A DNA stretch of 32,000 bases from Planctopirus limnophila DSM 3776 (GTDB taxonomy: Bacteria; Planctomycetota; Planctomycetia; Planctomycetales; Planctomycetaceae): NCBI RefSeq assembly GCF_000092105.1, contig NC_014148.1, positions 4,290,001-4,322,000 on the forward strand. Reading direction: 5' to 3'. The notes under the pieces are model-generated. The model did not search any database and had not been told where the DNA came from. It saw only the letters and a program-made list of their open reading frames with translations. This document shows positions 11,101-31,062 of the stretch, piece after piece. The stretch's first letter is position 1. Every line of letters starts with the position of its first letter. Both the position numbers and the translations under genes were made by a program.

Positions 11101-14100
11101 CAGGCGCTCCGCACGGAAACTTGTTGATCACGGTTTGTGAGAATGGTTTCAATCAAACGCGTGCAGGTGCTGCCCGGGCCAATCTCCAGAAACAGATTAG
11201 TTCCCTCCTGGCGGGCGGCTTCAATGACTGCCGGGAAATCAATCGTATGCAGTGCCTGCGAAGTGATTGCTTCCGCACAGGCCGTCGTGGAAGGGATGTA
11301 GGCCTTCGATGTCGCTGTGCTGTAGACCGTGATCTCTGGTCGCAGTTGAACAGGCAACAGATGCAGTGCCCGCCACTGATCTTCCACCTGCTGCACAAAA
11401 CCCAAATGGACTGTACTGGGCGCCGGCAAAGGTGTGATCGAGAGCGAAAGCTCTTCCAGCATTTCGGTCACTTGCGCTGCATCGCCGCCAATCAGGCATT
11501 TTTGCGGAGCGAGTACAATCAGTAATGCCACCTTTGGTTTTCTGGCAATGGCTGGCCAGAGTCGATCAGCCGGGCATTCGACCACTCCACTCGTCCAGGG
11601 GACAGGTTCATCGGGAGGAATGTTCCATGCCTGGCGGGCCGTATCGAACGGTGGTGTTAATAGACCGGTAAACAGTCGCGAGGCCAGCATGCGCGACAGC
11701 ATTTCATCGCGGGCTGTCCAGATTCTTAATCCGAAGAGTGCTGAGGATTCCCCGAGACTGTTACCAATCGCGGCTTGAGGAACGACTCCAAAGCGGGCCA
11801 GGAGATCGCACATCAATGTGGCCAGCGTCACCTGTCCGAAAATCATCGCCCGATGATCGCCCGCTATGGCTGCTGACGATTCACCATTCCACAACAAGTC
11901 AGGCCGGTACTGATCGGCCAGTCGCAGATTCTCGCGATCCTGCTGTTCGAGGATCTCCGGAAAAGCCTGCCCAAGCTCTCGTCCCATCCCCAGAAAATGG
12001 CTCCCCGAACCTGGAAAAACAAAGGCCAGCTGAGGATTCTGAGGTGCTGAAGAAAGGTAGAGCACACCCTCCTGGCTCAACTCTTCCTGGCCTGAAGCGG
12101 TCGTGATTTGCTCCAGCAAGCTCACCACTGATGCATTCGACGAAACCATCAGAATGGCGAGTGGTCGCGTTACTCCTTGCGGGCGGACTGCATACACCTC
12201 GCAAAAGTGCCGCCACCGGCTGGGCCCCACATGCCGCCCACTCAAACCATTGACAGCCGAGTTCTCCCACGCAGTCAGTAACGAACGCGCCCGCTCTGCC
12301 AGTTGATGTTGGGTTGTCAGGTGAGCAGGCGAAGCTTCTGCAATGCTGTCTGCCTCGTTACCAAATGTTTGTGGCTCAGGCCAGATCACCAGCGGCAATT
12401 CGGTTAAGTGTGGCCTGGTCGCTTCCAGCGATGATAACACCGGCTGTGGAGCTTCCTTAAGCCGAAGCACACTCCACAAGCCTGTCGGAGATTCACATCT
12501 GATGGTGGCTTGGCGCGAACCTTCAGCTCGATTTCTCAACCAGTATTGCCAGCCCTTGGCGCTTTTCCCGAGGGCATCGGCTGCACCGGGTGGGAGTGAT
12601 CGCGTCGCGAGGCAAGCCACAGCGGCAATCGCGTCGATCATCCCGGAAGCCACACCCGCAGGCCCCAAAAGAGCCGAGATTGAAGGAAAGACGTGTGGTA
12701 GTTCCTGAGATGGAGCCTCACCGGCACCAGACGTGATATTCTCGATCAAGGCATAGATCTGATCACCATCGCGCTGGGCATCCGAGAGCCGTTTGAGGAC
12801 GAAAGCACCGGCACCATAGGTCGAGTTGTCGGGAAGCGTACTCTTCCACAACCCGGTTTGATCAGCATCCGGCAGATCGACAGCGCACGCCAGAGCCAGA
12901 TCGATTTCTCTTAATCGTAGCGCCTCGCTGGCCTGACGGAGGGCTTCAAAACTGCTGGCCTCTTCGCTCGAAAGGACAAACGAGGGGCCGCCGCAATCGA
13001 GTTCGCGGGCGACGCGACTGGCCACAATCCCACCGAGATTTCCCATCACTCGATTGGGGGTGAGCGGAGGATGCAGCCCATTCACCAAAGATTCGATGAC
13101 GGCTGCGTGATCTTCGGTCGCAGAGATTCCCGAGTCGCGCAGTTCCTGTTCGAGTCGCCAGCGTAAATGAAAGTTCGACGATTCGATATCGAGGGCAATG
13201 CCGACAAACAGCCCGCAGCGATCTCCTAAGGAGCCTTCAAGACCCGCATGTGCTTTGGCTTCGCTGGCCACATCGAGCATCAGACCCTGTTGAGGGAGCA
13301 TATCCTGCTGCTCGACGGGAGGGATCCGAAAACGCTGCACAGGCCAGGAGAGTTGAGGATCTTCCGTTGGTACAGCTTCCCGTTCGGGATGTCGGCTTTG
13401 CCACCGCTCGAACAGTTGCTCGATCGATGCTTCGCCAAGTGCTGCCGAGAAACCGATGATCGCGACTGGCTCTTGTTCCGGCTGTGGCGTTGTCAGTTCG
13501 GTGGCGACACTCACCTGGACCGGGTGATGAGTTGAGGGGGAATCTGTCTCCTTTCCAGATTCTTCGTCGAGAAACTCTTCCACCAGCAGATGCCCGTTGA
13601 TGCCGCCAAATCCAAAACCATTCACAGCGGCACGCCGGGGGAGACCATGACCTGGGGCTTCCCAGCGTTGACTCTCGCGCAAAACTGCAAAGGGAGAATG
13701 TGGTTCCTGGAGCAGACCGGCTGGCTGCTCATAATTGGCAGTACAGGGCAATATCTGATGCTTGAGAGCCAGCACGACTTTCATCAGAGCAGCCGCACCG
13801 GCACCCGTCAGCAGATGGCCCACATTCGATTTCACTGCTCCCAGCACAGCCCGGGATGAGCGATAGCCTGCCTGCCGCCAGAGTTCATGCAGGCTGGCAA
13901 TCTCGACCTGATCTCCGACTGGTGTTCCCGTGGCATGACATTCGATGAGATCAACACTTTCGGGTAACCATCCCGCCCGCTGATAAGCCGCCCGCATGGC
14001 CCTTAACTGGCCTTCCGCCCGAGGTGAAAGCAGGCTGCCACCCCGATCATTCGAAAGCCCCGCCTCCACCAGCACGGCATGAATTTCCAGGCCGGCTGCA

Positions 14101-15038
14101 ATCGCATCCTGGAGCCTCATCAACAGGAACATCCCCGCTCCCTCACCGACGACCAACCCATCGGCGCGGGCATCGAGTGGACGGCACTTCTGCCCTTGAG
14201 AGAGCGCCTTGAGCTGTGAAAATCCAATCTGTGTGTACTGGCAATCGGGTCGGGAAAGCCCTCCCGCCAGCATCACGTCGGCCCGTCCCGCGCGGAGTTC
14301 ATTCATCGCCAGCTTGACGGCGTAGATCGATGAGGCACAGGCGGCATCGAGTGTGAATGCCGGGCCACGCCAGCCGAGTTCGCGAGCAATGATCGCTGCA
14401 GGCAAGCTCAGCGCGTATCGGTTCTGCTCAGACCAGCGCTGGGAATCTGCCGAGCCGTGGGGCCCAGGTGATTTTGTTCCCGTGGAGGCCTCGAGCACTT
14501 TCGAGAGGTATCTCGAACCGAGAACATCCCAGCACAGATCGTTGATGGATTCGATGGGGAGAGCGATGCTGCCGAGGATCACACCACAGCGGGCCGGGTC
14601 AAACGTCTGCAGGTTCAGCGAGCCGGCTGGCCTGTTCTGATCTGTCCCCCGCAGCAGTGAGTTTTGTGTGCTCTCGATCGTCTGGAAGGCCGTCTTCAGC
14701 CCGAGGCGAAAGAGGGGATCGAGCCCGTTCCATTCGGCTTCAGTGATGGAGGGCAGATGTTGGGAAATGGACGGCCGGTGGGGAAAGAGATTCCAGACCC
14801 CTTCATCGAGATAACAGCCCCAGGTCGAGAGGGCTTTATCCGGCTGAGAAAACGGCCCCAGTGCATAGCGGCTCTCCAACCTCCAGCGACCCTGCGGAAC
14901 ATTTCTCCCGGCATCAACACCTGAGTGAATATTGCTCCAGAAGCCACGCAAATCGCCCGCTCCGGGAAAGTACCCTCCCAGGCCGACAATGGCGATTTTC
15001 TCATGGGAATCAGCAGAGCTTGGGGAACGTTGAGACAC
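8124..15038 (-). CDS. pfaC: PfaC-type PUFA/polyketide synthase subunit: KS - chain-length-factor (inactive KS) - acyltransferase - two tandem FabA-like dehydratase modules
   Basis: 2304 aa with a GTG start at 15038.
- KS: IAIVGLGGYFPGA, TLDAACASS (Cys234, codon 14337-14339), ECHATGTPVGD, KSNVGHLLTGAG.
- Second KS-like domain (about aa 525-900): the active-site position reads FVLSSEEASS, with no Cys, so it is a CLF.
- AT: FVFPGSGSHFLGMG and GNSLGES (Ser about 1094, codon 11757-11759).
- Two DH modules: LFLAGWLGID plus HFCDDHVMPGTL (about aa 1785), and WLAAYAGS plus HFYEDPVMPGSL (about aa 2202).
- I saw no ACP (GxDS), KR or ER motif. Confidence 0.9.
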   Translation of the reverse strand: MSQRSPSSADSHEKIAIVGLGGYFPGAGDLRGFWSNIHSGVDAGRNVPQGRWRLESRYALGPFSQPDKALSTWGCYLDEGVWNLFPHRPSISQHLPSITEAEWNGLDPLFRLGLKTAFQTIESTQNSLLRGTDQNRPAGSLNLQTFDPARCGVILGSIALPIESINDLCWDVLGSRYLSKVLEASTGTKSPGPHGSADSQRWSEQNRYALSLPAAIIARELGWRGPAFTLDAACASSIYAVKLAMNELRAGRADVMLAGGLSRPDCQYTQIGFSQLKALSQGQKCRPLDARADGLVVGEGAGMFLLMRLQDAIAAGLEIHAVLVEAGLSNDRGGSLLSPRAEGQLRAMRAAYQRAGWLPESVDLIECHATGTPVGDQVEIASLHELWRQAGYRSSRAVLGAVKSNVGHLLTGAGAAALMKVVLALKHQILPCTANYEQPAGLLQEPHSPFAVLRESQRWEAPGHGLPRRAAVNGFGFGGINGHLLVEEFLDEESGKETDSPSTHHPVQVSVATELTTPQPEQEPVAIIGFSAALGEASIEQLFERWQSRHPEREAVPTEDPQLSWPVQRFRIPPVEQQDMLPQQGLMLDVASEAKAHAGLEGSLGDRCGLFVGIALDIESSNFHLRWRLEQELRDSGISATEDHAAVIESLVNGLHPPLTPNRVMGNLGGIVASRVARELDCGGPSFVLSSEEASSFEALRQASEALRLREIDLALACAVDLPDADQTGLWKSTLPDNSTYGAGAFVLKRLSDAQRDGDQIYALIENITSGAGEAPSQELPHVFPSISALLGPAGVASGMIDAIAAVACLATRSLPPGAADALGKSAKGWQYWLRNRAEGSRQATIRCESPTGLWSVLRLKEAPQPVLSSLEATRPHLTELPLVIWPEPQTFGNEADSIAEASPAHLTTQHQLAERARSLLTAWENSAVNGLSGRHVGPSRWRHFCEVYAVRPQGVTRPLAILMVSSNASVVSLLEQITTASGQEELSQEGVLYLSSAPQNPQLAFVFPGSGSHFLGMGRELGQAFPEILEQQDRENLRLADQYRPDLLWNGESSAAIAGDHRAMIFGQVTLATLMCDLLARFGVVPQAAIGNSLGESSALFGLRIWTARDEMLSRMLASRLFTGLLTPPFDTARQAWNIPPDEPVPWTSGVVECPADRLWPAIARKPKVALLIVLAPQKCLIGGDAAQVTEMLEELSLSITPLPAPSTVHLGFVQQVEDQWRALHLLPVQLRPEITVYSTATSKAYIPSTTACAEAITSQALHTIDFPAVIEAARQEGTNLFLEIGPGSTCTRLIETILTNRDQQVSVRSACPLTAHPVRHFVRTLAWLAVRGVAVDLAPLFAPCQLTKLFEGKRKTASLPNSPQIEIPIRRLNWKQIPVVTSEVAGVLQELLRNESSRSESHPHPGPLPEGEGINNRPLPEGEEIAAEQLIDTKTSSATPMTMNSPETLDAAEAAYLAFEERLARLQAEGEFELAPHQEVVLSTNSAASKRDKSTPPRSLSREECLEFAIGKIGEALGPLFAAADQYPTRVRLPDEPLMLVDRITNIEGEPLSMSHGCVVTEHDVHAARWYLDGGRIPTAIAVESGQADLFLAGWLGIDLQTRGLAVYRLLDAIVTFHRGLPVPGETIVYNIRILKFFQQGETWLFKFEFDGTVNGEPLITMREGCAGFFTESALAAGKGIIHSTLDLAPRPGKLPADWLEPVAITPGNLSDAQVEQLREGDLVGAFGQAFAGLPLHKPYTIPGGKLRLVDRVLEIEPGGGKYGLGRIRAALDIHPDDWFLECHFCDDHVMPGTLMYECCLHTLRIYLLRMGWVGETGEVVSEPVVGIESRLKCRGQVLASTKEVWYEVTIRELGYGREGSHGDAYCLADALMFADGKPIVEISNMSLRFTGLTKARVEAIWAGRKIEDPHPNPLPEGEGIREVKKSGASGGNTPLYDVRPAIYPLERITAYSIGKPSEAFGPEYTVFDHDRKIARLPGPPFQFLDRIVEVGGPPFVMKAGCHCVAQYDVPVDAWYFSANRQPEMPFSVLLETALQPCGWLAAYAGSALTSETDLKFRNLGGKATQHRPVTPEIGTLTTTARMTQASMSGGMIIQHFSMEMFARDELVYSGTTYFGFFSAASLANQVGLRDAKRVVLENFAASESFSQAPPFPEASYSFVDQITHCLVQQGSVPGRPELAGFVRGEAQVNPAAWYYKAHFYEDPVMPGSLGLEAFLQVIKHWMVKAEIVSTHGGVNFETPVCGTPQAWVYRGQVIPKDSLVTIDAEIVSIDRTTNTVIANGWLEVDGRVIYQMTGWAVRGVG
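9271..9307. repeat. REP-like palindromic element, in frame in the DH1-DH2 linker of the megasynthase
   Basis: Sequence is attccctctccctctgggagagggttagggtgagggt. It contains a perfect 9-bp stem (ccctctccc / gggagaggg) with a 3-nt loop. It matches the copy at 10792-10829 at 34 of 37 aligned positions. On the minus strand it encodes PHPNPLPEGEGI. Confidence 0.85.
10759..10829. repeat. Two tandem REP-like palindromic elements (one truncated, one full), in frame in the AT-DH linker of the megasynthase
   Basis: 10759-10782 is atctcctctccctcagggagaggc, with stem cctctccc/gggagagg and loop tca. 10792-10829 is attccctctccctcagggagagggccagggtgagggtg. Together they encode HPHPGPLPEGEGINNRPLPEGEEI on the minus strand (aa about 1404-1427). 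Confidence 0.85.
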
Positions 15039-15460
15039 TGGGCGTCAGATCATTCAAAAGTCGAATTTCAAACTGGCTCACGTCTGTTCATAGATCCAGG
15101 CGTAGCTCTTGGCAGCAACAGCCCCCCAGTCTACCCAGACAGCAAACCTCAGGCGACTGGCAGGGCTCATTCTAAGGGAAGAAAAGTGCAACGCGCATCC
15201 TTAGCAAAACAAAAGGCGAAATGTCAATAACCGCCTCACACACGAGGAGATCGCTTCGAGAGAGCAGCCACGCTTCTTTCGCAGTTTTTAATGGGGGCGG
15301 AATTATCTCTCGTGAGATAAGCCGTCCACGATCTGACGACTTCATGCAATCACAAGCCCATTCGGTCAGCACCAAAGCCTAGAAAGTCAATGCTTTAATC
15401 TTATGTTTTCTTGTTCATTTGTTGTTTAGTAACAAAATTTAAATGAGATAGGAATTGTCG

Positions 15461-15488
15461 TTGACTTTTAAATTACTTGTGAAATGAT
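15461..15488 (+). promoter_or_regulatory. Candidate sigma70-type promoter for the orphan secreted-protein gene
   Basis: TTGACT (15461-15466), a 16-nt spacer, then AATGAT (15483-15488), preceded by TGa (extended -10-like). It lies in a very AT-rich stretch 55 nt upstream of the ATG at 15543. This is pattern matching only. Confidence 0.3.
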
Positions 15489-15542
15489 CACTCCCACGCT
15501 CACCAAAAGAAATTGTGTTCACAAGAATTTCAGGAGCCCGCG

Positions 15543-16388
15543 ATGATGAAACATGCATTTATTGGTCTGGCGCTACTCATCCATGTTGTCACTGTAGTTA
15601 GTGATGCTGAAGCTACTCTTCCGCGTTTTCTCAGGGCAGCAGGCGACGGAATGCGTACAAGAATCAAAAGTACCGCAGGTGGAATCATTTACGGCGGCAC
15701 TCCATTTGACACTGTTGAATATAATAGTGGATGGGTTGATAGTGCTGTTGGGGATGCGACAGCAGCGATTGATTCAGGTGGTGTTTCTTCATTCTCTACA
15801 GCGGACTCTGCAATTGGCGTAGGTCTTGATGGTCAAACATTAATCTCAACTCCTTTATTATCTCAAGGAGTTATTCTACTTGAGGATTCGGGGACCGGAA
15901 CCGTCAATGGAAGTGTGGGGGTTTTAACAGAATGGGATGTTGAGTGGGTCGTAGATGATGAGGGTGGGCTTCGCGATTTTTCTCATGAGTACACAGTGCA
16001 ATGCGAAATATCGCTTTCTCATTCAATGTTGGCGACGGGAGGTATGTCAACAATGGAGATGATGGCATTCCCTTCAAAAGTTGGTTATGCGGGTAGTTCG
16101 ATAAAGTATGGCGACTCTTTCTTTATTAAGATAGAGGCAGGGGGTGAGGTTATTGAAGTGACTTTTGATGAGTATGAAGGTGAATGGATTTCGAATAATG
16201 GTGTTATTTCTGTATCATACCCCAGCAATGACGATGTTGAAATTGTAGTGAGCAAGAACGTAGTACTCGAAGATGGTGATTCTGTTTCCATTACAGGACA
16301 AATCGGTGTTAATTATACAATATTATCAGCTGATCCTGCTGTTGAGGGTGTTTATACATTGGCTGTTGACGCAAAGCTCATACCCTAG
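15543..16388 (+). CDS. Orphan secreted protein (no recognisable domain), low-GC gene
   Basis: The track ORF starts at TTG 15513. ATG 15543 is preceded by AGGAG (15532-15536) at 6-nt spacing. MMKHAFIGLALLIHVVTVVSDAEA is a signal peptide. The mature part is rich in G/V/S/D/E and looks beta-rich. An open frame of about 280 codons in roughly 40% GC DNA is unlikely by chance. Confidence 0.6.
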   Translation: MMKHAFIGLALLIHVVTVVSDAEATLPRFLRAAGDGMRTRIKSTAGGIIYGGTPFDTVEYNSGWVDSAVGDATAAIDSGGVSSFSTADSAIGVGLDGQTLISTPLLSQGVILLEDSGTGTVNGSVGVLTEWDVEWVVDDEGGLRDFSHEYTVQCEISLSHSMLATGGMSTMEMMAFPSKVGYAGSSIKYGDSFFIKIEAGGEVIEVTFDEYEGEWISNNGVISVSYPSNDDVEIVVSKNVVLEDGDSVSITGQIGVNYTILSADPAVEGVYTLAVDAKLIP

Positions 16389-16754
16389 TTGTATGAGCAA
16401 TTCATCATTATCTTTAAGTGTATTTGAGAATTCGTCGATTGCTCAATTTCTAACAAGACTGCGACTTTCTCTTCTAAAACAAACGTTGTGCTTTTGGTTG
16501 TAAGCCGGGTGATGCTGATATGCCAGCCATACCGAAATGGCTCAGATCGTGCCTAAAAGGCACCTCGATGCAAATTGCGAGTGATCTCACTGTTTATGTA
16601 ACTTCTGGATAGCCCAATCTCGACATTGAGATGAAGACCAAGTAGTGACGATACACGTCAAACAATGCCTCTGACTACCAGGAAATACGCCATATGCCAT
16701 CACAGGATGATTCCTGAAGTGACACATGGCGTTTTACCTTTTGATACGTTGGTA

Positions 16755-18191
16755 TCAATGGGCTGGTGGCGGGCTGTTCTGGAAGGCGCGGTTTCTGAAG
16801 AGAAACTCGACCAGGTTTCCTTCGTGCGGCTGGAGCCAGTTCAATTGGACCGTCTTGACCCGGCCAATGTTCAGCCGGTCGATGTTATACGCATCGAGCA
16901 GTTGCTGGCTGAACTTGGGATCTTCCGTGATCGCTGTGCAGACCAGTGTGGGGCCAATGGCCTTGATCGTCTGATTCTGCGGGCATTCGACAACCGAAGT
17001 AAAGGGGAACATGTACTCGGCATTCGCGAGTTTGGCTTCGGGCGACGAGCAGTGAATGACCGTCGGGAGCAGGTATTCGGACTTCCCCAGTTTCCCGATG
17101 CGGTTACCGCCATGGAAAGCCGCACTGACATCGGTTGAGTAGCCATCCTTCAGACCTTCATCGATCTGGTTCGAGACACTTTCAGCCACACCCGCTGTTG
17201 TGGATGCTGCGAGAATGGCTTTGGGATCCGTTGCGGGAAGAGGCACAATTTCGGACATCTTCTTCGCGATTGCCTGGGCGATTTCCTTCGTGTGCCGGGA
17301 GGCATAGATGCTGGAGCAATTGATACACCCGCGACCACCATTGGCCGCCACGCTATCGACCATGGTATCGAGGTAATCTTCCCAGTGATCCACGAGGTCG
17401 TCGCCCAGAATGATCTTGCTGAAGCCCGGGCCATGAACAGAGACGCGGGGATTGCCTGCATGCTGCTGAACAGTCTGCTGGCTGCCGAAGATCATGCAGC
17501 GATGAGCGTCGCTGAGCAGTCCACCGCCGACATCATGACCACCGGGATACAGCGAAATGGCCTCGCGAGGAATGCCTGCAGCAAAGAATGCTTCCGTGAT
17601 GCGATAAGGTGTCCAGAACTCCTGTGAGCCGGGCTTGAGCATCAAACCAATCTGCATGGGGATCGCTGGGAGCCAGAGTGTATGAACTCCCGGCGAATTC
17701 GAGGGGAGAACAGCCCCCAGAATCGGCGTTGTGGCCTGATAGCTGACCATGACTCCCCGCGATTCCATGCCGTAGCCCTTCGAGAGAATCTCGTGGGGCA
17801 GGCCGCGTGTGAGAGCGTCGATCACTTCGCCCATGTGCGAGAGAACGTACGCATTCTTTCGCATATTGAAGGCACAAAGCGAAATGGGAATACCGGTCGT
17901 TGCGGACTGCATGTTGCAGAACTGCTCAGGAGTGAGTTTCCCGGTGCCGCAGGGAAGTTCGGCATTGAGGTAAAGGTCGGCCGCCTTCTTGCATTTCTCA
18001 ATCAGATCGTCGATCGAAAACTGGCGGAGTGCTTCGCGCGACTGCTGGGCTTTCCGCAGGTCCATCTTCACCATGGCCCCTGTGGCCTGATGCAGTCTGG
18101 CCAGAGTTTCGCCGGTTTCAAAGTGGTTAATATCCACTTTTTCCATACTGTCGTAAGGTTTGCCAAAGCGAAGGATGGGTACGTCGAACAT
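16755..18191 (-). CDS. Aldehyde-dehydrogenase-superfamily protein, LuxC-like acyl-CoA/acyl-protein reductase architecture
   Basis: 478 aa. It has an ALDH-like ordered motif set: LPSNSPGVHTLW (NAD(P)-binding region), VHGPGFSKIIL (equivalent to ELGGKSP), GGRGCINCSSIY (candidate nucleophile Cys), AEYMFPFTSVVECP (equivalent to EExFGP). It is divergent from classical ALDHs. Confidence 0.75.
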   Translation of the reverse strand: MFDVPILRFGKPYDSMEKVDINHFETGETLARLHQATGAMVKMDLRKAQQSREALRQFSIDDLIEKCKKAADLYLNAELPCGTGKLTPEQFCNMQSATTGIPISLCAFNMRKNAYVLSHMGEVIDALTRGLPHEILSKGYGMESRGVMVSYQATTPILGAVLPSNSPGVHTLWLPAIPMQIGLMLKPGSQEFWTPYRITEAFFAAGIPREAISLYPGGHDVGGGLLSDAHRCMIFGSQQTVQQHAGNPRVSVHGPGFSKIILGDDLVDHWEDYLDTMVDSVAANGGRGCINCSSIYASRHTKEIAQAIAKKMSEIVPLPATDPKAILAASTTAGVAESVSNQIDEGLKDGYSTDVSAAFHGGNRIGKLGKSEYLLPTVIHCSSPEAKLANAEYMFPFTSVVECPQNQTIKAIGPTLVCTAITEDPKFSQQLLDAYNIDRLNIGRVKTVQLNWLQPHEGNLVEFLFRNRAFQNSPPPAH

Positions 18192-18266
18192 GGTGGTACT
18201 CGATATGTAAGAGTAAGCAAATATATTTTTTAAAATGATCGTGTGGGAGTGATTTCAGCTCAACCT

Positions 18267-18659
18267 TCAGATGTCTTCAAGAGCTTCCAGTACAACCTCA
18301 CCACCTGCGAAAATATTCATTCGAAGTGAAAACCCTGCCAGCAAAGCCATACCAATGAGTGTAGTGGTGCCGCCACCATAGGCCTCGACAGTGGCACGAC
18401 CAAACTCAGTAACAACATCAACTTGAAAGATGTCTCCAATAGCCAGACTTCCATCAGCAGTGAGATATTGGCCAGTGCCAATTGGACTTAGCCCCAGTTC
18501 CTGTATGACGCCATGATCTAGCACAAGATAGGTTGTACAACCTGTATCAATGATCGCTTCCACCCGAAGAGATCGATCGTCATTCCCCAGCAAGTACACT
18601 GGCAGTACTGGTTCGAGTCGGTCGTTGATGTATCCCTTCAAGCAAGATCCTTCCATCAA
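18267..18659 (-). CDS. Retropepsin-like clan AA aspartic protease (single-domain, about 130 aa)
   Basis: VEAIIDTGCTTYLVLD carries the DTG catalytic motif. LIGMALLAGFSLRMN matches the C-terminal LLGMDxL-type motif of bacterial/archaeal mini-retropepsins. The track start is TTG 18659; ATG follows at 18656. The upstream ORF's stop (TAG, 18660-18662) abuts this start directly. Confidence 0.7.
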   Translation of the reverse strand: MMEGSCLKGYINDRLEPVLPVYLLGNDDRSLRVEAIIDTGCTTYLVLDHGVIQELGLSPIGTGQYLTADGSLAIGDIFQVDVVTEFGRATVEAYGGGTTTLIGMALLAGFSLRMNIFAGGEVVLEALEDI

Positions 18660-18914
18660 CTACGAAACACGACGCCACGAGCCCATTGAGAAAGCCAGAG
18701 GGCTACCAATTTTCCTGAGAAATGGCTTACTTTCCGGATGTCTCGCACGAACTTGCTGTATTGCCAATATCCCTTTGGAGTTGACTTCATAATCACCAGA
18801 TTCGACATCGATAGCGATAAACAGTTCCGGATTTTCGCCAATTAACTGACTAGCGATACGATGCTCGAAAAGCCAGTTGGCCTTATCGGCCGTCGCGTCT
18901 GTTGCAGAGGACAT
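18660..18914 (-). CDS. Small hypothetical protein, partner of the retropepsin-like protease
   Basis: 84 aa: MSSATDATADKANWLFEHRIASQLIGENPELFIAIDVESGDYEV.... Its stop is immediately adjacent to the protease start. It shares the same lower-GC composition as the protease gene. I recognise no domain with certainty. Confidence 0.5.
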   Translation of the reverse strand: MSSATDATADKANWLFEHRIASQLIGENPELFIAIDVESGDYEVNSKGILAIQQVRARHPESKPFLRKIGSPLAFSMGSWRRVS

Positions 18915-18950
18915 GTAAAACCTCCAGGCAAAAATGGATGATTCTATGGC

Positions 18951-20051
18951 CTAGTAAACCCCCACAGTGGTACTCTTCGCAATTTCATGGAATGGGCGGG
19001 TGCCGCTGATGCCGTCCCAGGGGAACTTATCGCAAGGAAGTTCGCGTTCGCCTTCATCGCGTTCCATGAAGCCCGGCACAAAGAGTTCCTTTGTCATCGT
19101 GTAGAGCTTCACGCGGCCTGTCTGGCCGTAATCCACGACCTTGTTGTAATCCTTGAAATCGACCACCTCGATGGCTGCCCGCGGCTGGGGTGCATGGTAG
19201 GTGATTTTATAGTTATCTGCAGGATCGAACGGCTTACTACAGGCCAGGCCCATCAGCGTGTTGCCGTAAGTAGGGGTCATGAAAACATCCGGCCCGAGAA
19301 GTTCTTCACAGCAGTAGCGATACCACTGGGGAGAAAACTCTGTCCCGCCGCCAAAAATCCCCGTAATCCCCTCTTCGGCAATACTGCTCCCATTATCAAT
19401 CAGCTTGAGAGCCAGTGCTTCGAGCAGTTTAGGAGTCATAAAGGCGCACTTGATATCGTGCCCACCTTTGAGAATTGTCAGCACCTGATCAATGCAGTGA
19501 TTCTTATAATCTTCGGCTTCTTTAATGCGTCCCTGCTTGAGCAGCTTAACGACCCACCGTGGGTCAAGATCAATACAGAAGCAGATCCCGCCGCGATATT
19601 GAGCCAGATGCTCAATGGCCAGCCGCAGTCTACGCGGGCCTGACGGGCCGAGCATCAGCCAGTTGGATCCTGGTGGAAACCATTTGTCGTCCAAGGTTTT
19701 GGAAAACTCTTCATAATCGATCCAATGATCTTCAATGACCATGCGGCTTTTGGGCAGACCTGTCGTTCCGCCTGTTTCGAAAACATAGACAGGTTTACCG
19801 GCCAGGCCTTTGGGAACCCAGCGGCTGATCGGCCCGCCACGCAGCCAGTCGTCTTCAAAGTGAGGGAACTTTTTGAGGTCTTCAAAACTTTTCACCTCTT
19901 TAACAGGGTCAAAGTTAAAAGTTTTGGCCTTTTCCAGCCAGAAGGGAGAACCTGTCTCCGGGCTGAAATGCCAGTGAATCGTTTCCACGGTGTGCTGATC
20001 AAGTCGATCTTTGGCAGCAGCAATCTTGGCAGAATCAACCATAGCCATCAC
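18951..20051 (-). CDS. Adenylate-forming enzyme, LuxE (acyl-protein synthetase) / PaaK (aryl-CoA ligase) type
   Basis: 366 aa. FETGGTTGLPKS is the phosphate-binding loop of the LuxE/PaaK branch (compare SSGTTGKP). GIFGGGTEF is the second Gly-rich motif. GTG at 20051 is followed by ATG at 20048, with aggaa upstream. Confidence 0.8.
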   Translation of the reverse strand: MMAMVDSAKIAAAKDRLDQHTVETIHWHFSPETGSPFWLEKAKTFNFDPVKEVKSFEDLKKFPHFEDDWLRGGPISRWVPKGLAGKPVYVFETGGTTGLPKSRMVIEDHWIDYEEFSKTLDDKWFPPGSNWLMLGPSGPRRLRLAIEHLAQYRGGICFCIDLDPRWVVKLLKQGRIKEAEDYKNHCIDQVLTILKGGHDIKCAFMTPKLLEALALKLIDNGSSIAEEGITGIFGGGTEFSPQWYRYCCEELLGPDVFMTPTYGNTLMGLACSKPFDPADNYKITYHAPQPRAAIEVVDFKDYNKVVDYGQTGRVKLYTMTKELFVPGFMERDEGERELPCDKFPWDGISGTRPFHEIAKSTTVGVY

Positions 20052-20169
20052 AGTTCCTGAGAGTTGGTTTTGTGTTTGAAAACTTTGACTATTGTCTGAT
20101 TTTAGAAGTCAGGAATTGAGCGTCTCGAAGAATTATCAAAATCCCGAATTCGAACGCTGAATCACTGAG

Positions 20170-21747
20170 TTAATCCATATCTGTTGCAGATGGTTCGGGA
20201 AGGAAGAAACTCAAAGCAAAGCCCACCAACGTGACAAATCCGGCCACGCTGGCCGCTGCGATTGAGAAGGCCATCGGCGGCGAGAAACCACCGGCGGCAC
20301 CAGCATTGGCTGTCAAAAACCCGGCAATCGTGGTCGTGACCAGGGCAAAGCTGGTACCGATCATCCGGCCACCAATATTGGCAGCAAAGCTTTCTCCCGT
20401 ACCACGCAAATGGAGTGGATAGACGCGAGGCAAATAGTTCCCCCAGAAACTGAATTGTCCCACGACAAACAGGCCGGCCATAAAGACACCCAGTGAGACG
20501 GTGGTAATGGGCAATACACCCAAAAAGATGGCTTCGAGATTGATTTCAAAGAAGGTTTGATTTTCCACCTGCAAAAACAGGGCAAAGACGGCCGGGAGAA
20601 TGATCAAGCCGGGAATCTGCAGGCACCAGAGGAGTTTACGCCGGCTGAGAATTCGCACAGCCAGTAATGCCAGCAGGAAGCGACCAACCAGACCGCCGAT
20701 TTCTTGAACCTTGGTGTATTCACTGGCGATCTTCTGCTCGTATTGCCGCATGGCACCCATTTTGGCTTTTTTCGCCAGTTCAGGATCAGGTGGCAACTTG
20801 GCCTTGTCGGCTGCAGCGATCGCTTTTTCCTTCACATCAGCCAGGCCAGGGACAATTTGTGGAATCTGTTGAATAGCACCGAAAGCTGCCCCATAGCTCA
20901 TGGCGAACATTAACGTGGTCACTATGGTCGTCTTACGCAACTGAGGCGAAAAGAGCTGCGCAATGCTGGGCCGCTTGAGAGTTCCTGCAGTGGCTTTTTC
21001 TTTCCAGGCGGGCGATTCTGGTAAAAAGGGCCTGATGATAATGAGGGGAATGGCAGGGATCAGCCCCGACATCAACGTGTATCGCCACGCTTCGTGATGA
21101 TGTGCCGGTTCAATAGTTCCCCAGAAGCCTGCGGCAAATTCGGGAATGAACGTTGGTGGCAAATCAGCAGCAAAACGGATCGCCAGACCATTCATGATGG
21201 CGACTAGCAAGCCGCCAATCGATGAAAATGCCTGGGTATAACCCAAAACTTTTTCTCGCTGGTGAGGATTCGGGAATAACTCGGCGAGCCACGCCACCGC
21301 AGCCACAAACTCGACACACACACCAATGAACATGGTGCAGCGGAAGAAGAGCAGCATCCAGATACTCGTGGAAAAGCCAGCGAGAAAAGCTGAGCCCGCA
21401 TACAGCAGAATACTCCAGGTCAACACACTGCGGCGACCGAGGCGATCTGTCAGGTATCCTCCCAGAAGGCCGAATGCTCCTCCGGCAAATGCAGGAATGT
21501 AGAAAAGTCGCCCCACCCACATCAAAAACTCGGGGCTGCCAGGCTGTGCACCCACCAGTTCCAAGAGTGCAGGACGGACAATCAGTGGCAACATCAGCAG
21601 TTCATAAATGTCGAACGCAAAGCCAATGGCTGCAATGATGCAAATCAGCCAGCGGGTCATATCCATGGGAACTGGCGGAGGTGGCAATAGGCCCGCAGGT
21701 GAAGAAGACATGCATTGGTTCCAGGCAGGCAACAAAGTGTGGGGCAA
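20170..21747 (-). CDS. MFS transporter (sugar-porter / aromatic-acid:H+ symporter-like)
   Basis: 525 aa with about 12 hydrophobic segments. It has the GYLTDRLGRR loop 2-3 signature and PESPAW after TM6, plus a long charged central loop. The true start may be Met13 (21711) or Met28 (21666, MDMTRWLICII). Confidence 0.85.
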   Translation of the reverse strand: MPHTLLPAWNQCMSSSPAGLLPPPPVPMDMTRWLICIIAAIGFAFDIYELLMLPLIVRPALLELVGAQPGSPEFLMWVGRLFYIPAFAGGAFGLLGGYLTDRLGRRSVLTWSILLYAGSAFLAGFSTSIWMLLFFRCTMFIGVCVEFVAAVAWLAELFPNPHQREKVLGYTQAFSSIGGLLVAIMNGLAIRFAADLPPTFIPEFAAGFWGTIEPAHHHEAWRYTLMSGLIPAIPLIIIRPFLPESPAWKEKATAGTLKRPSIAQLFSPQLRKTTIVTTLMFAMSYGAAFGAIQQIPQIVPGLADVKEKAIAAADKAKLPPDPELAKKAKMGAMRQYEQKIASEYTKVQEIGGLVGRFLLALLAVRILSRRKLLWCLQIPGLIILPAVFALFLQVENQTFFEINLEAIFLGVLPITTVSLGVFMAGLFVVGQFSFWGNYLPRVYPLHLRGTGESFAANIGGRMIGTSFALVTTTIAGFLTANAGAAGGFSPPMAFSIAAASVAGFVTLVGFALSFFLPEPSATDMD

Positions 21748-22328
21748 AGTCGAGACTGAAATTCTACAGTCAGAACTGGCGATGCAAACAGTTGTCTAAA
21801 CAAGTTTAAAGCTGAATTCGAATCGCCGAAAGTCCTGTACACGGATGATCAGACAATTCGGTCGCGGGAAAACCTGAGGATTCTCCACAGGATTCACCCA
21901 CTCATTCATCCAAACTTGTTGATGAATTGTCGCTGGCGAGCATAAAAGCCATGCGGGCCAAAGGCAAACGGTTCCTGGCCAAACATTCGCAAGTTTTTGC
22001 CAGGCTTGTTCCCCTATGAGGAAATTCCACCGGCAATCGGCTTTCTTTCATGAGAAACAGCGAGAATCCCCACTGGAACCATCAGATACTTATCGCATGA
22101 ACACCTATCGACTTTCCATCAACAACCTGATCTGTGTTATGGCGAAAGAAATCGCGACAGGCAGAAATTGCGGGTGAAACCTGACATTCGGGCGTGAACT
22201 CGGGATTGCAGCACTCTTTTGATCGATCTACAGTTCGCCGATCTGTATCCCCCGGCAGGCTCATCGAATTCGGCAATGCCAAGATACTTACTGTCAACAT
22301 TCCTTCTTTTGCAGAGGCAGCTTCCTCG

Positions 22329-24249: not shown

Positions 24250-24657
24250 TCACTGAGACTGATCGAAACGATGTGCGAGATCACAAAGATCTGCCAGATC
24301 AGCTTCTGGAAACAATACTCGCAATCGCCCGGGATCATCAACCTGCCAGCGGGAGACGGCTTCCGCCAGGACATCCAGATAGACGTTTCTGCTCCGTCGT
24401 CCTGGCCCAAAGGGCAAATCCTCGTGACGAATCACCACCGGTCGATCGTGCAGCCACGAAAGATCATTCAAGGCATCTGCCAAAGCATCCCAGTTGTGAC
24501 CAAACCAGGGGCAGCCCAGTTGCTGGCTGTAAATATCCAGAAGTGTCTGCTTCGAGGAAATTCTTGCAGGAATGGTCACTATGAACACACCGACTGCAAG
24601 CTGTACCGGGCTGAGTGGCTCAAAGCAACGGGCGTAGGGAAGATTTTCAGATGACAT
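24250..24657 (-). CDS. Barstar-family ribonuclease inhibitor
   Basis: 135 aa. ISSKQTLLDIYSQQLGCPWFGHNWDALADALNDLSW aligns with barstar's [31 protein letters not shown]. This includes both acidic residues of the barnase-binding helix (D..D in NWDALADAL). It lies 73 bp downstream of a barnase-type RNase gene. Confidence 0.75.
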   Translation of the reverse strand: MSSENLPYARCFEPLSPVQLAVGVFIVTIPARISSKQTLLDIYSQQLGCPWFGHNWDALADALNDLSWLHDRPVVIRHEDLPFGPGRRSRNVYLDVLAEAVSRWQVDDPGRLRVLFPEADLADLCDLAHRFDQSQ

Positions 24658-24730
24658 GAGTCCTCACTGCCGGTTGACGTCGTTGAACCATCGCGTAATT
24701 CGGGCTTGGGAAGGCGAGTTGGCAGCAGAA

Positions 24731-25402
24731 CTATTTCAACTTCTTGAAGCTGCCGTAATGATCGGCAGTGTAATAAATCTCACCCGATTTTCCCGTAATG
24801 ATTCGCTGAGGGCCAGGCCCATCCAGTTCCGCTGTGGGATGCACCCACTCGCGATAATAACCTGCTTCTCGAGTTGGCAACCGGCGTTCGCGATTTTGAA
24901 ACACAGAACCATCATTTCGAAACCGCAGCTTCTCGCCCGCTTCGATCCGGGTGATCGTTTCGGTCAGATCAATATCACCTCGATAAACCACCTTCCCCTG
25001 CAAATCCTTGACCGTCTGCTTGGCAACAATCCAGCGCTTTTCAGCAGAGGGAGTGGGCGATTTCTCAGGCGAAGCGACCTTGGAATTCCCGAGTGAATTC
25101 CCTGCATTCGGTCGTATGACGGGAGATGCATCAGCCGGAGAGTTTCTCAATGCCTCTGGTTGCTGAACGGACTGTGAGGCACCTTGTCGGACCTCGGCAT
25201 TTGCCGGATTCGAAGCCTCCGTCAAGGTGTGATTCTCTTCGGATTCAGCTTCAGTCGCTGGTGCAGGATTCTGAATTGTTGATGGAGGCGACGATGTGGC
25301 AGGTTGTCGCTCCACGACGAACTGCCACGCGAGACTCAAGCTCACGAAAACGATCAGGAGCACCAGATGGGTGCGAGTCATGCGGAACCGGGAGGAAGGC
25401 AC
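24731..25402 (-). CDS. Secreted/membrane-anchored guanyl-specific ribonuclease, barnase / RNase Sa (N1/T1) family
   Basis: 223 aa. The N-terminal TM/signal segment is MTRTHLVLLIVFVSLSLAW. A low-complexity P/S/A/N/E-rich linker of about 110 aa follows. The C-terminal domain DGSVFQNRERRLPTREAGYYREWVHPTAELDGPGPQRIITGKSGEIYYTADHYGSFKKL matches RNase Sa (DGVVFQNRESVLPTQSYGYYHEYTV...GTRRIICG...YYTGDHYATF), including the catalytic Glu, Arg and His positions. Confidence 0.8.
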   Translation of the reverse strand: MPSSRFRMTRTHLVLLIVFVSLSLAWQFVVERQPATSSPPSTIQNPAPATEAESEENHTLTEASNPANAEVRQGASQSVQQPEALRNSPADASPVIRPNAGNSLGNSKVASPEKSPTPSAEKRWIVAKQTVKDLQGKVVYRGDIDLTETITRIEAGEKLRFRNDGSVFQNRERRLPTREAGYYREWVHPTAELDGPGPQRIITGKSGEIYYTADHYGSFKKLK

Positions 25403-26509: not shown

Positions 26510-26797
26510 TTGAGATTTATGGAATGAATTGTTGTAGGGCAATTCTTCCATAGTAAGTTGCGTGACGGATGCAGGAAGGCGGCTTGGCACGAAGTTGACC
26601 GCATGTTGGCGTGATGTCAGCTGCGGAAAGCAAGGTCCGGGTCGCCTTTATCGTTTTCAGGCGGAATTTTTCCGGCTGATTGAACGCTGTCTGCATGGAT
26701 GCTCGTCAAAGACTTTGTACAGTCAATAATTACTGGGAATGTTGGCAGGAGTCGACGACTGCTGCCGAATGAAATTCTTGATTTGAAGGTGGCATTT

Positions 26798-28249
26798 ATG
26801 TCGACTGAAACTGTTGCGGCAGTGGCTGATGCGGACAACAAGCGGAAGCTGGCACTCGAAGTCGATGTTCAGACGGTCGGGCCCTGTCGGCGTCATGTTC
26901 GCGTGAAAATCGCGGAAGCAGAAATTCAGGAAGCCCGCAAGCAGTGTGTGAAAGAGTTTGGAACTTCTGCTGCTGTCCCTGGTTTTCGCGTCGGCAAAGT
27001 TCCCGCAGGATTGATTGAACGCCGCTTCAATAAAGAGATTTCCGAGCGAATTCGCGAAAAGCTCCTCATCGAGAGCCTCGAGCAGCTGGGCGAAGATAAG
27101 TCGATTGAACCGATTGACGAACCACAGTTCGATGTGGCCAGCCTGCAGATCCCTGACACTGGCGATTTTGAATATGAATTCGATGTCGAAGTTCGCCCCG
27201 AGTTTGAAATTCCGGCTTACTCGGGCCTGTCGATCAAGCGACCTGTGCATACTGTGTCAGAAAGCGAAATCGAGAAGCGAATTCGCGATTACCAGATCGA
27301 ACGGGCCACGGAACGTGTCGTTGATCGACCTGTCGCTGCCGGCGATTACGCTCGCGTGACTCTTGAATTCCGACATGCTGATAACAAACTCTCGACAGTT
27401 TCCAATCAGCGCGTGGTCGTTCGGCCCTCACTGAAATTGCGTGATGGCGAGATTACCGGTTTTGACCAGCTGCTCATCGGAGCAAAGGCTGGCGATGTCC
27501 TGACCACCAGCCTCGTGGTCACACCGGAAGCGGAAAACGTGGAACTGCGTGGCGAAACCATCCAGGTCAACGTCACCGTGGTGAATGTCGTTGAGTTCGA
27601 TCTGAAGTCAGTCGATGAAATTGCCGAGGAATTCGCGCTGGAGTCGGCTGAAGAAGTTCGCAATGAAGTCCGTAAGACGCTGGAACGCCAGGTGACATAT
27701 CGTCAGCGGCAGGAAACACGTCGTCAGGTTCTCGAACAGATGACGGCCTCTGCTGATTGGGAACTGCCCGAATCGCTGGTTCGCCGTCAGGTGGAGAACG
27801 CCCTGCGTCGCGAAATGCTCGAAATGCAGCAGGCTGGTTTTTCCTTCGATGAAATTCGTGCTCGCGAAAACGAACTGCGTCAGAAGTCGCTGACAACCAC
27901 TCGCCAGGCACTCAAGGAACATTTTGTTCTCGATCGTGTGGCTACGAAGGAATCGATTGAAGTCGAGCCTTACGAAATTGATGCCGAGATTGGCCTCATG
28001 GCTTACCAGCAGATGGAAACACCACGTAAGCTGCGTGCCCGCCTGCAGAAGAACGGCATGATTGAGAATCTCGAAGCTCAGATTCGCGAACGCAAGGCTG
28101 TGGATCACATCCTGGCTCATGCCACTTTTGAAGATATCCCGATGGAGATCTCTGAGACGGAAACCTCCTTCGCCTTGCCTTACTCAGTTGCCGGGACATC
28201 AGTCGCTGGAACAATTGAGGATAGTCAGGAAGAGGACAGTGAGGAATAA
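26798..28249 (+). CDS. tig: Trigger factor
   Basis: ATG 26798 is preceded by gaaggtgg. In the N-terminal ribosome-binding domain, GFRVGKVP matches the GFRxGxxP TF signature. The protein is about 480 aa with an acidic C-terminus and sits directly upstream of clpP, the classic tig-clpP synteny. The track ORF's extra 33 N-terminal residues are unlikely to be real. Confidence 0.9.
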   Translation: MSTETVAAVADADNKRKLALEVDVQTVGPCRRHVRVKIAEAEIQEARKQCVKEFGTSAAVPGFRVGKVPAGLIERRFNKEISERIREKLLIESLEQLGEDKSIEPIDEPQFDVASLQIPDTGDFEYEFDVEVRPEFEIPAYSGLSIKRPVHTVSESEIEKRIRDYQIERATERVVDRPVAAGDYARVTLEFRHADNKLSTVSNQRVVVRPSLKLRDGEITGFDQLLIGAKAGDVLTTSLVVTPEAENVELRGETIQVNVTVVNVVEFDLKSVDEIAEEFALESAEEVRNEVRKTLERQVTYRQRQETRRQVLEQMTASADWELPESLVRRQVENALRREMLEMQQAGFSFDEIRARENELRQKSLTTTRQALKEHFVLDRVATKESIEVEPYEIDAEIGLMAYQQMETPRKLRARLQKNGMIENLEAQIRERKAVDHILAHATFEDIPMEISETETSFALPYSVAGTSVAGTIEDSQEEDSEE

Positions 28250-28264
28250 TCCTTCGCCGATCTG

Positions 28265-28298
28265 GAAAAGTGCCACTTCGGAAGAAGTGGCACTTTTC
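28265..28298 (+). terminator. Intrinsic terminator after tig
   Basis: Perfect 15-bp inverted repeat gaaaagtgccacttc / gaagtggcacttttc with loop ggaa. The descending arm ends in TTTTC. It starts 16 nt after the tig stop codon. Confidence 0.6.
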
Positions 28299-28617
28299 GA
28301 TTCACAAACCGGCATCAGAGACAATTCGTTTAAGTTTTCCGGCTGATCAATGTTCTCGAAACTCCACGAGTGAATTGAGAACGGCGAATGCAGCCATGAT
28401 CAGACGGAAAGCCCATGCGATCGCGAAAATCGGGAGTGAGTTTTTCGAATCGCTCGGTCTGATGAGTCGAGTAAGTAGGTGATAACTCTCGACCTGCATT
28501 CCGATGAAGACATGCTGATAAAGACAATCTGAAAACTCGAAGCCTTGATGATTTAAACTCGTGACAGTCGATGGTATTGGCCACGACAACCAGCAACATT
28601 CAGAAGGAGTGCCTCTC

Positions 28618-29301
28618 GTGGGACGACCTGATTCCGGTCTGGGTGAGTGGATGGCAGCAAGTGCATCCGGGGGGTATTCCCGGCAGCGTCAGATGGGTCT
28701 GGGTGACCTGCTGCTGGAAAATCGGATCATCTTTCTCGATGGCCCGATTCATGACGCGAGTGCCAATCTGATTGTGATGAAACTCCTCTTCCTGCAGGCA
28801 GAGAATCGCCACCAGGATATCCACTTCTACGTCAATTCCCCTGGTGGCTCTGTCACAGCGACCATGGCGATTTACGACACGATGCAGTTTTTGCAATGTG
28901 ATATCGCCACCTATTGCGTTGGCCTGGCGGCCAGTGGCGGGGCGATTGTGCTGGCCGGTGGAACCAAAGGCAAAAGATATTGCCTCCCTCACGGCAAAGT
29001 GATGATTCACCAGCCTTACGGTGAAGTTGGCGGACAGGTTTCTGATATCGAAATTCAGGCACGCGATATTCTCGATACACGCCGCGTGCTCAATGAGATT
29101 CTGGCCCACCACTGCAATCAGCCCATCGAAATCATCGCTCGGGATACCGAACGCGATTACTACATGAATGCCTATCAGGCCAAAGATTACGGCATCGTCG
29201 ATGAAGTCCTCTCGAACCCGAAGAAGCCACCAGTCGGTATCCCGATCCCAGCTAATAAGCCTGTTGAAGGTGAATCTGCTCCCGGCACAACCGTTTCGTA
29301 G
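28618..29301 (+). CDS. clpP: ATP-dependent Clp protease proteolytic subunit, paralog 1
   Basis: Motifs: [22 protein letters not shown], catalytic Ser in GLAASGGA, His in MIHQP, Asp in [10 protein letters not shown] strong SD (GAAGGAG, 28603-28609) lies 8 nt before GTG 28618. The track start GTG 28561 is the alternative. The Pro-rich C-terminal tail of about 30 aa is unusual. Confidence 0.88.
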
Positions 29302-29402
29302 CGAACATTTGTGGTGCGCGATGTCCATCGGTGACCCGGCACCAACAGAACTCTCTCAGATCGTATTTTCATCACCGTCCCTTTCTCGTGCGAGAATTCA
29401 GC

Positions 29403-30985: not shown

Positions 30986-31062
30986 TTCCTTTAGCGAAGC
31001 CAATTTTTACACTCGCCTGCAAGCCATTTTTTCGATCTCCAACAATCTTCGAAGATTTCGCG

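Follow-up and report, generated by a model that had tools for sequence, protein, structure and literature searches.

Introduction

Split carboxylic acid reductases, in which an AMP-binding protein works with a separate partner of the aldehyde dehydrogenase (ALDH) fold, have to our knowledge been studied so far in two antibiotic pathways only. Here we analyze a stretch of 32,000 nucleotides from the chromosome of Planctopirus limnophila DSM 3776 (NC_014148.1, positions 4,290,001 to 4,322,000; called the window below), which carries genes for a 366-residue adenylating protein and a 478-residue ALDH-fold protein. We will argue that these two genes encode a carboxylic acid reductase of the EhpF/EhpG (GriC/GriD) type, which is split between two proteins and depends on ATP and NAD(P)H, a reading to which we assign a probability of roughly 0.7, and that the substrate is most likely a chorismate-derived acid of the hydroxybenzoate type.

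The EhpF and EhpG proteins belong to the D-alanylgriseoluteic acid (phenazine) cluster of Pantoea agglomerans, and structures of EhpF are available (3HGU, 3HGV and 3L2K). We take EhpF to be an ANL enzyme without the usual C-terminal domain. In connection with its structure, Bera et al. are said to have proposed in 2010 that EhpF and EhpG turn phenazine-1,6-dicarboxylate into the 6-formyl compound via an acyl-adenylate. In LuxE/LuxC, a short ANL-type enzyme activates an acid with ATP, and an ALDH-fold reductase accepts the acyl group on a Cys and reduces it with NADPH to the aldehyde. The Nocardia-type carboxylic acid reductases (CARs), finally, consist of adenylation, carrier and reductase domains and have aromatic acids as typical substrates.

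The second split system is GriC/GriD of the grixazone pathway in Streptomyces griseus. As described in a later article, GriC adenylates 3-amino-4-hydroxybenzoate and the acyl-AMP so formed is the substrate from which GriD makes the aldehyde, with evidence obtained in vivo (Suzuki, Ohnishi and Horinouchi 2007, J Antibiot 60:380, via PMC10179220).

The original prediction for this locus, made from the letters of the DNA, had grouped the two proteins with a major facilitator superfamily (MFS) permease into one carboxylate-to-aldehyde module. This holds for the pair, on the strength of its homology to EhpF/EhpG, and does not hold for the permease, which is unlinked to the pair outside the genus. 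The annotation as a LuxE/LuxC fatty-acid reductase with a link to polyunsaturated lipids is a tempting mis-annotation that is corrected below.

Results and Discussion

Relation to the known systems

Both planctomycete proteins are full-length homologues of the Pantoea pair. In a phmmer search of the PDB, the 366-residue protein finds EhpF (3L2K/3HGU, E 4e-44), residues 17-354 being aligned with residues 20-353 of the 366-residue EhpF chain, and the C-terminal ends of the two proteins coincide. With BLASTP, the 478-residue protein matches Pantoea EhpG over its full length (residues 21-470, E 6e-31); the best solved ALDH gives a partial match (residues 154-407, 6e-10). The order of the genes is also shared, with the ANL gene followed by the ALDH gene. 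On the Pantoea plasmid the two abut, the gene directly after EhpF being EhpG, annotated as 'aldehyde dehydrogenase family'. There are, however, clear differences. The identity to EhpF/EhpG is just ca 24-31%, and the planctomycete context has no phenazine (phz) genes and no source pathway for the proposed Ehp substrate. Moreover, the Pantoea genes lie on a plasmid and serve an accessory antibiotic function, while the planctomycete pair is single-copy, chromosomal and found almost throughout the class.

The kinship with GriC/GriD rests on the shared EhpF/EhpG family and on the name 'arylcarboxylate reductase' that NCBI gives to some Streptomyces homologues, not on a direct sequence comparison. 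As described, GriC/GriD is likewise a two-protein carboxylic acid reductase, made up of an AMP-binding protein and an ALDH-like partner, and its aromatic substrate fits the chorismate-lyase context of the planctomycete pair discussed below. GriC/GriD lies inside a dedicated secondary-metabolite cluster, unlike the pair considered here. One Streptomyces homologue named 'arylcarboxylate reductase', on plasmid NZ_CP108024.1 (L002, 5947-13029), is followed by a type I polyketide synthase gene and not by an ALDH-fold gene, which suggests that the adenylating subunit can have other partners.

The original prediction had likened the two proteins to LuxE and LuxC. The proposed chemistry is indeed the same and the protein sizes are similar, but in hmmscan searches of Pfam at E <= 0.1 neither LuxE (PF04443) is matched by the 366-residue protein nor LuxC (PF05893) by the 478-residue protein, there is no LuxD, no luciferase and no conserved link to lipid genes, and the relatives are EhpF and EhpG instead. 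With the Nocardia-type CARs the pair would share the net reaction of acid, ATP and NADPH to aldehyde. It has, however, no carrier domain, phosphopantetheine arm or reductase domain of the short-chain dehydrogenase/reductase type, and the acyl acceptor would be a Cys of the ALDH-fold protein.

The adenylating subunit

The 366-residue protein contains the P-loop motif FETGGTTGLPKS from residue 93, reading TGGTTGLPK with T93 as its first residue, and a GGGTEF motif at residue 234. Among the residues that are invariant in the alignment of the subunit are G94, G95, G98, P100, G263, N264, E330, R331 and D332. In Pfam, the only match is to the AMP-binding P-loop and lies under the threshold (16.3 bits against a cut-off of 29.9), and neither AMP-binding_C nor AMP-binding_C_2 is matched. 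The absence of the C-terminal domain is thus a feature shared with EhpF.

The NCBIfam search gave a single weak match, to F390 synthetase (residues 33-117, 29 bits against a cut-off of 459). The protein had also been described as PaaK-like, which is not borne out, as it has no match at the level of the PaaK model TIGR02155 in the same search and no C-terminal domain. A true PaaK-like gene is located elsewhere in the same genome.

The gene is single-copy in 36 of 41 relatives of the class, with identities of 64-100%, and is present in 30 of the 34 relatives with high-quality genomes. Across families of the class the identity is 64-81%. Phylum-wide, matches were obtained in 68 of 251 sampled genomes, with orthologues at no less than 50% identity in about 55.

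The ALDH-fold subunit

For the 478-residue protein, Pfam returns PF00171 (Aldedh) alone, with 8.3e-22, and all scores against the ALDH equivalogs of NCBIfam are far under the cut-offs. The Cys in its GGRGCINCSS motif, put forward earlier as the candidate nucleophile, is Cys289. It is invariant, together with Asn165, in a family alignment of 24 sequences that includes distant members.

It is at the position of the general base that the protein departs from the common ALDH pattern. Where hydrolytic ALDHs have ELGGK with the general-base Glu, the planctomycete protein reads VHGPGFSK, with His253 at the position of the Glu, and this His is conserved in at least 90% of the aligned ALDH-fold sequences. 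EhpG likewise keeps the Cys and the Asn and lacks the Glu; it reads VQGPGRSK, with a Gln in place of the His. The 478-residue protein therefore does not fit a hydrolytic NAD(P)+-dependent aldehyde dehydrogenase. Loss of the general base with retention of the nucleophile and the oxyanion hole would instead be expected where a thioester is formed and then reduced, not hydrolyzed, by analogy with the reductive members of the ALDH superfamily.

Pairing of the two proteins

In 14 out of 18 genomes of other genera, the ALDH-fold gene lies directly downstream of the adenylating gene. Three of the four genomes where this is not the case were searched, and in all three the ALDH-fold gene was found elsewhere in the genome, while it was absent from two searched genomes that lack the adenylating gene. 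Distant family members from metagenomes are also paired (loci L036 and L038).

The structure prediction of a complex between the two subunits gave interface scores (ipSAE) of 0.64, 0.64 and 0.61 in three runs, with 0.00 for the best control. For comparison, of 80 solved complexes 58 reach a value of 0.64, as do 2 of 110 mismatched pairs. At least 93% of the contacts are common to the runs, and the predicted local confidence (pLDDT) of the partner is 90 or higher. The predicted interface involves residues 176-281 of the adenylating subunit (215, 242, 246 and 250 among them) and residues 15-46, 227 and 243 of the ALDH-fold subunit (including 16, 39, 43 and 46). On the basis of these models, the two proteins probably form a complex; we know of no solved complex of the EhpF/EhpG family.

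Two fused family members agree with an aldehyde as the product. In P0215 the adenylating subunit is joined to a class-III aminotransferase and in P0227 to a Zn-alcohol dehydrogenase, which ties the subunit to enzymes that consume aldehydes.

Proposed mechanism

The homology to EhpF/EhpG, the conserved catalytic residues and the conserved pairing of the genes are all direct observations, and the following mechanism can be proposed on their basis. The 366-residue subunit, which has no C-terminal domain, would convert the carboxylate and ATP to the acyl-AMP. The acyl group would then move to Cys289 of the ALDH-fold subunit, presumably within the predicted complex. Reduction of the resulting thioester by NAD(P)H would release the aldehyde, and the absence of the general-base Glu would prevent hydrolysis back to the acid. 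Finally, a dedicated Fe-alcohol dehydrogenase (Fe-ADH) encoded ca 500 kb away would probably turn the aldehyde into an alcohol, the likely end product of the branch. Adenylation, thioester formation and reduction are in each case read from homology and conserved residues.

The conserved gene set

We now turn to the genomic context of the pair in related bacteria. Synteny and co-occurrence place the pair in a set of genes that is conserved across the class and that further comprises the Fe-ADH, three propeller proteins similar to pyrroloquinoline quinone (PQQ) enzymes, a HemN-like radical S-adenosylmethionine (SAM) enzyme, a chorismate-lyase-fold protein of 180 residues, a halogenase-like flavoenzyme, a PaaK-like ligase, a GcvH-like protein and a ferredoxin-domain protein. 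The Fe-ADH gene is found directly downstream of the ALDH-fold gene in three families (f2, f3 and f5). At three loci (L024, L026 and L027) much of the set forms one tightly packed operon on a single strand, the members of which are listed in Table 1. At two others (L043 and L045) the Fe-ADH, a propeller, the radical SAM enzyme and the 180-residue protein are clustered with a CmlS-like flavoenzyme. In L026, the PaaK-like gene of the long operon is immediately preceded by a gene of the lipoate/biotin protein ligase family (16595-17389, minus strand), and the GcvH-like protein encoded in that operon may carry a lipoyl-type modification.

The adenylating, Fe-ADH and chorismate-lyase-fold genes have the same distribution among the 34 high-quality relatives, the Fe-ADH orthologues being counted at >=50% identity: 30 genomes carry the complete trio, and the remaining four (G027, G031, G032 and G037) have none of the three. 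Three genomes are discordant in this pattern, all of them less than 90% complete.

The 180-residue protein has no match in Pfam or NCBIfam and is placed only by a fold search and by its language-model neighbours. Its structure model has a pLDDT of 89. The top Foldseek match is AF1396 of DUF98 (E 1.3e-9, TM 0.67-0.78), which we take to be the Pfam family now called Rv2949c-like, and the chorismate lyase of E. coli is matched with an E value of about 1e-4. The same fold is also shared by the effector domains of GntR regulators. Some orthologues of the protein are labelled chorismate-pyruvate lyase by JGI.

A comparable combination has been described for the BaaA/BaaB locus of Planctomycetales strain 10988, where a chorismate-lyase-like gene stands by a flavin brominase gene and a role in making 3,5-dibromo-p-anisic acid has been proposed without genetic proof (bioRxiv 10.1101/723874). 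In one of our relatives (G029), a chorismate-lyase-like gene is likewise located beside a flavin halogenase gene, in the same cluster as the Fe-ADH. There are two differences, however. The Baa proposal keeps the carboxyl group and involves no reductase (bioRxiv 10.1101/723874), and in P. limnophila a distance of 3.8 Mb separates the lyase-fold gene from the halogenase-like one.

Nature of the substrate

The linkage to a chorismate-lyase-fold protein, a CmlS-like flavoenzyme and a PaaK-like ligase suggests aromatic chemistry, and the context points to biosynthesis from chorismate and not to uptake followed by CoA activation. A number of observations weigh against the picture of an aromatic acid reductase and have to be considered here. 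In ANL enzymes, the Lys that assists adenylation is normally located in the C-terminal domain, and the 366-residue protein does not have this domain; that it adenylates at all is assumed from GriC and EhpF, and catalysis by the planctomycete pair is likewise derived from homology. Neither the P-loop nor Cys289 is visible in the predicted interface, so the model alone is no proof of a channel between the two. The aromatic nature of the substrate is deduced via linkage that runs through intermediate genes, and in P. limnophila itself the genes of the set are scattered, being dispersed over at least six loci of contig 1 (Table 1). The four co-absences come from no more than two independent lineages (families f4 and f8), which makes the co-occurrence statistic a modest one. 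Finally, the Fe-ADH has its closest similarity to enzymes for small aliphatic aldehydes, among them ErcA, lactaldehyde reductase and 4-hydroxybutyrate dehydrogenase, in all cases under the cut-offs, and a small hydrophilic acid would therefore fit as well.

This last point leads to a different possibility, namely that the pair belongs to core metabolism and has as its substrate a small carboxylate, either aliphatic or derived from an amino acid (for instance lactate, succinate, 3-hydroxypropionate or a dicarboxylic amino acid), with the Fe-ADH completing the route to a diol or hydroxy acid. The distribution of the adenylating subunit, single-copy, near-universal in the class and well conserved across families, is typical of core metabolism, and the linked Fe-ADH has its closest similarity to enzymes for lactaldehyde, sulfoacetaldehyde and 4-hydroxybutyrate. 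Both studied relatives have, however, been assigned aromatic acids, GriC/GriD having been shown to reduce one and EhpF/EhpG being proposed to, and the tightly linked genes named above speak for aromatic chemistry. A replacement of ProB and ProA by the pair is ruled out, because both genes are present in the genome with scores above the cut-offs. Taken together, we consider an aliphatic substrate unlikely.

Retaining the aromatic acid reductase, we tentatively go one step further, at something short of even odds. The pair would carry out the reduction of acid to aldehyde in an undescribed pathway of ca 12-15 genes, made up of the conserved set above with the GcvH-like protein as a carrier and the chorismate-lyase-fold protein as an enzyme. 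Kept by nearly all Planctomycetia under strong selection, with its genes here spread over six or more loci, this pathway would lead to a modified hydroxybenzyl aldehyde or alcohol with a role as cofactor, signal or component of the envelope, and not as an occasional antibiotic. The enzyme type as such is known; what is unusual is its occurrence as a single-copy pair across almost the whole class, in contrast to an accessory antibiotic function. A single-copy pair conserved to this degree between families suggests a physiologically important product. P. limnophila DSM 3776 is genetically tractable and is thus a practical organism in which to find the substrate and the product of the pair. Two-protein reductases may also be of interest in biocatalysis, since they work without a phosphopantetheine carrier.

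Neighbouring genes and layout of the window

The coordinates of all features are collected in Table 1. The MFS, 366-residue and 478-residue genes are co-directional on the minus strand as originally predicted, and the motifs quoted for them, including DRLGRR and PESPAW of the permease, were all found. A scan for promoters and terminators over 14800-22300 gave counts that are not above those of shuffled sequence, and the boundaries of operons are thus not inferable from it.

Table 1. Location of the reductase pair, its neighbours and the members of the conserved gene set. Positions are given in nucleotides of the window or, for contig 1, in Mb of the P. limnophila genome.
Feature	Location	Position	Strand	Description
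Adenylating gene	window	18951-20051	minus	366-aa EhpF/GriC-type adenylating subunit (predicted), ANL N-terminal domain only
ALDH-fold gene	window	16755-18191	minus	478-aa EhpG/GriD-type reductase subunit (predicted)
MFS permease gene	window	20170-21747	minus	525 aa, TTG start; genus-specific upstream neighbour
Inserted two-gene cassette	window	18267-18914	minus	between the adenylating and ALDH-fold genes
Cassette open reading frame (ORF) 1	window	18660-18914	minus	84 aa, without family match
Cassette ORF 2	window	18267-18659	minus	130 aa, clan AA retropepsin-like, DTG motif
PfaC-like gene	window	8124-15038	minus	2304 aa; two ketoacyl-synthase (KS) stretches, one acyltransferase domain, four FabA stretches
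FabH-type ketoacyl-synthase III (KAS III) gene	window	6826-8043	minus	NF006720, 519 bits; follows the PfaC-like gene
PaaK-like ligase	operons L024, L026, L027		same strand	
Two large PQQ-like propeller proteins	operons L024, L026, L027		same strand	
Reductase pair, then Fe-ADH	operons L024, L026, L027		same strand	
Third propeller protein	operons L024, L026, L027		same strand	
HemN-like radical SAM enzyme	operons L024, L026, L027		same strand	best match ChuW/HutW class
GcvH-like protein; ferredoxin-domain protein	operons L024, L026, L027		same strand	
Radical SAM enzyme and 180-aa protein	contig 1	0.195 Mb (gene of the 180-aa protein 196590-197135)		
PaaK-like ligase	contig 1	1.66 Mb		
Propellers and Fe-ADH	contig 1	3.80-3.81 Mb (Fe-ADH 3805007-3806182)		
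Halogenase-like flavoenzyme	contig 1	4.04 Mb		
GcvH-like and ferredoxin-domain proteins	contig 1	4.28 Mb (4280687-4282534)		
Reductase pair	contig 1	4.31 Mb		

The MFS permease, the small cassette and the genes for PfaC and KAS III share the locality of the reductase system without belonging to it: at 14 loci from other genera, none of these genes was found within 10 kb of the pair. Starting with the permease, its gene lies 118 bp upstream of the pair and in the same direction, and it adjoins the pair in all five genomes of the genus. Pfam gives Sugar_tr (5.5e-19) and MFS_1 (8.4e-17), and all subfamily matches in NCBIfam are far under the cut-offs. The best of the latter is the aromatic acid:H+ symporter model TIGR00895, with 63.2 bits against a cut-off of 418.55, and the score for PcaK (NF053517) is 24.8 bits against 770. 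With both scores under the family cut-offs, neither identity is accepted for the permease, including the PcaK-like one suggested earlier. Linkage of the permease and PfaC genes to the pair was examined across the 41 relatives. Orthologues of the permease occur in 23 of these, but only the five genomes of the genus have them adjacent to the pair; in the other 18 the distance is at least 35 kb and reaches more than 1 Mb, or the permease gene is on a different contig. Many genomes that carry the pair have no orthologue of the permease. The permease is thus probably not part of the conserved reductase system.

These results bear on the proposal that the locus serves the catabolism of an imported aromatic acid, in which the permease takes up the acid, the 366-residue enzyme activates it to the CoA thioester in the manner of PaaK, and the ALDH-fold protein either acts on the CoA ester or oxidizes an aldehyde. 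The position of the permease gene throughout the genus and its weak resemblance to the aromatic acid symporters agree with this. However, the thioester half-reaction is carried out by the AMP-binding C-terminal domain, which is missing as the 366-residue protein ends where EhpF does, and the ALDH-fold protein is without the general-base Glu that is needed to oxidize aldehydes. Besides the low scores and poor linkage of the permease, there are also no ring-cleavage or beta-oxidation genes near the pair. Of this part of the original prediction, the aromatic nature of the acid is probably right, whereas uptake and CoA activation are not supported, and we regard the catabolic scheme as a whole as highly improbable.

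A spacer of 759 bp parts the two reductase genes and is filled by the two-gene cassette, whose longer product of 130 residues matches Asp_protease_2 (3.9e-5) and TIGR03698 (1.4e-9). Among the five genomes of the genus, the cassette is present in three (G000, G002 and G003) and absent from two (G001 and G004), and it was not found between the two reductase genes in the other genera examined. One of the two genomes without the cassette has a reductase that is 99-100% identical, so that the insertion or loss of the cassette must be recent. A module that is mobile or was gained not long ago is suggested by this, and the cassette is not part of the reductase.

The pair had further been described as adjacent to PfaC and OleA genes. 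A PfaC-like gene and a FabH-type KAS III gene, the candidate OleA, are indeed present, but the genes are not contiguous: apart from the cassette spacer, there is a gap of 1.7 kb (15039-16754) between the ALDH-fold gene and pfaC, with an ORF on the opposite strand inside it. No pfaA, pfaB, pfaD or oleBCD genes are found in the window, although no search aimed at oleBCD was made. The PfaC-like gene is solitary, and other large KS-containing genes are located far from it, at ca 0.59 and 2.16 Mb.

Full-length PfaC orthologues near the pair are confined to this genus, while in one metagenome relative, the adenylating subunit of which is 80% identical, the pair is followed by a PfaC-like gene at a distance of 6 kb downstream. 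Only about one third of the relatives yielded PfaC orthologues. In G016 these are separated from the pair by 1.4 Mb, in G029 by 440 kb, and in family f5 they are on contigs other than that of the pair. Family f4 has PfaC and lacks the pair, and in most f1 genera that carry the pair no PfaC was found. The co-occurrence of the pair with pfaC across the relatives is thus inconsistent and speaks against the lipid link of the original prediction, which had itself named a lack of co-occurrence as refuting this link. A fatty acid reductase of the LuxE/LuxC kind, making fatty aldehydes or alcohols from PfaC/KAS III products, would be compatible with the chemistry of the pair and with the proximity of PfaC in this genus (1.7 kb) and in the metagenome relative, but it is largely refuted by these data and by the unmatched LuxE and LuxC profiles, and retains hardly any probability.

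Some further features of the region can be mentioned. The orthologues of the GcvH-like and ferredoxin-domain proteins lie ca 8 kb before the start of the window, and ca 24 kb from the pair. At 24250-25402 on the minus strand, a gene for a barnase-type ribonuclease (223 residues, PF00545) is directly followed by one for a barstar-type inhibitor (135 residues, PF01337), which looks like a secreted ribonuclease with its immunity protein. On the plus strand, 26699-30011 holds the housekeeping gene for trigger factor and, after it, two ClpP paralogues, and a DUF3050 (haem-oxygenase-like) gene is located at 30925-31884.

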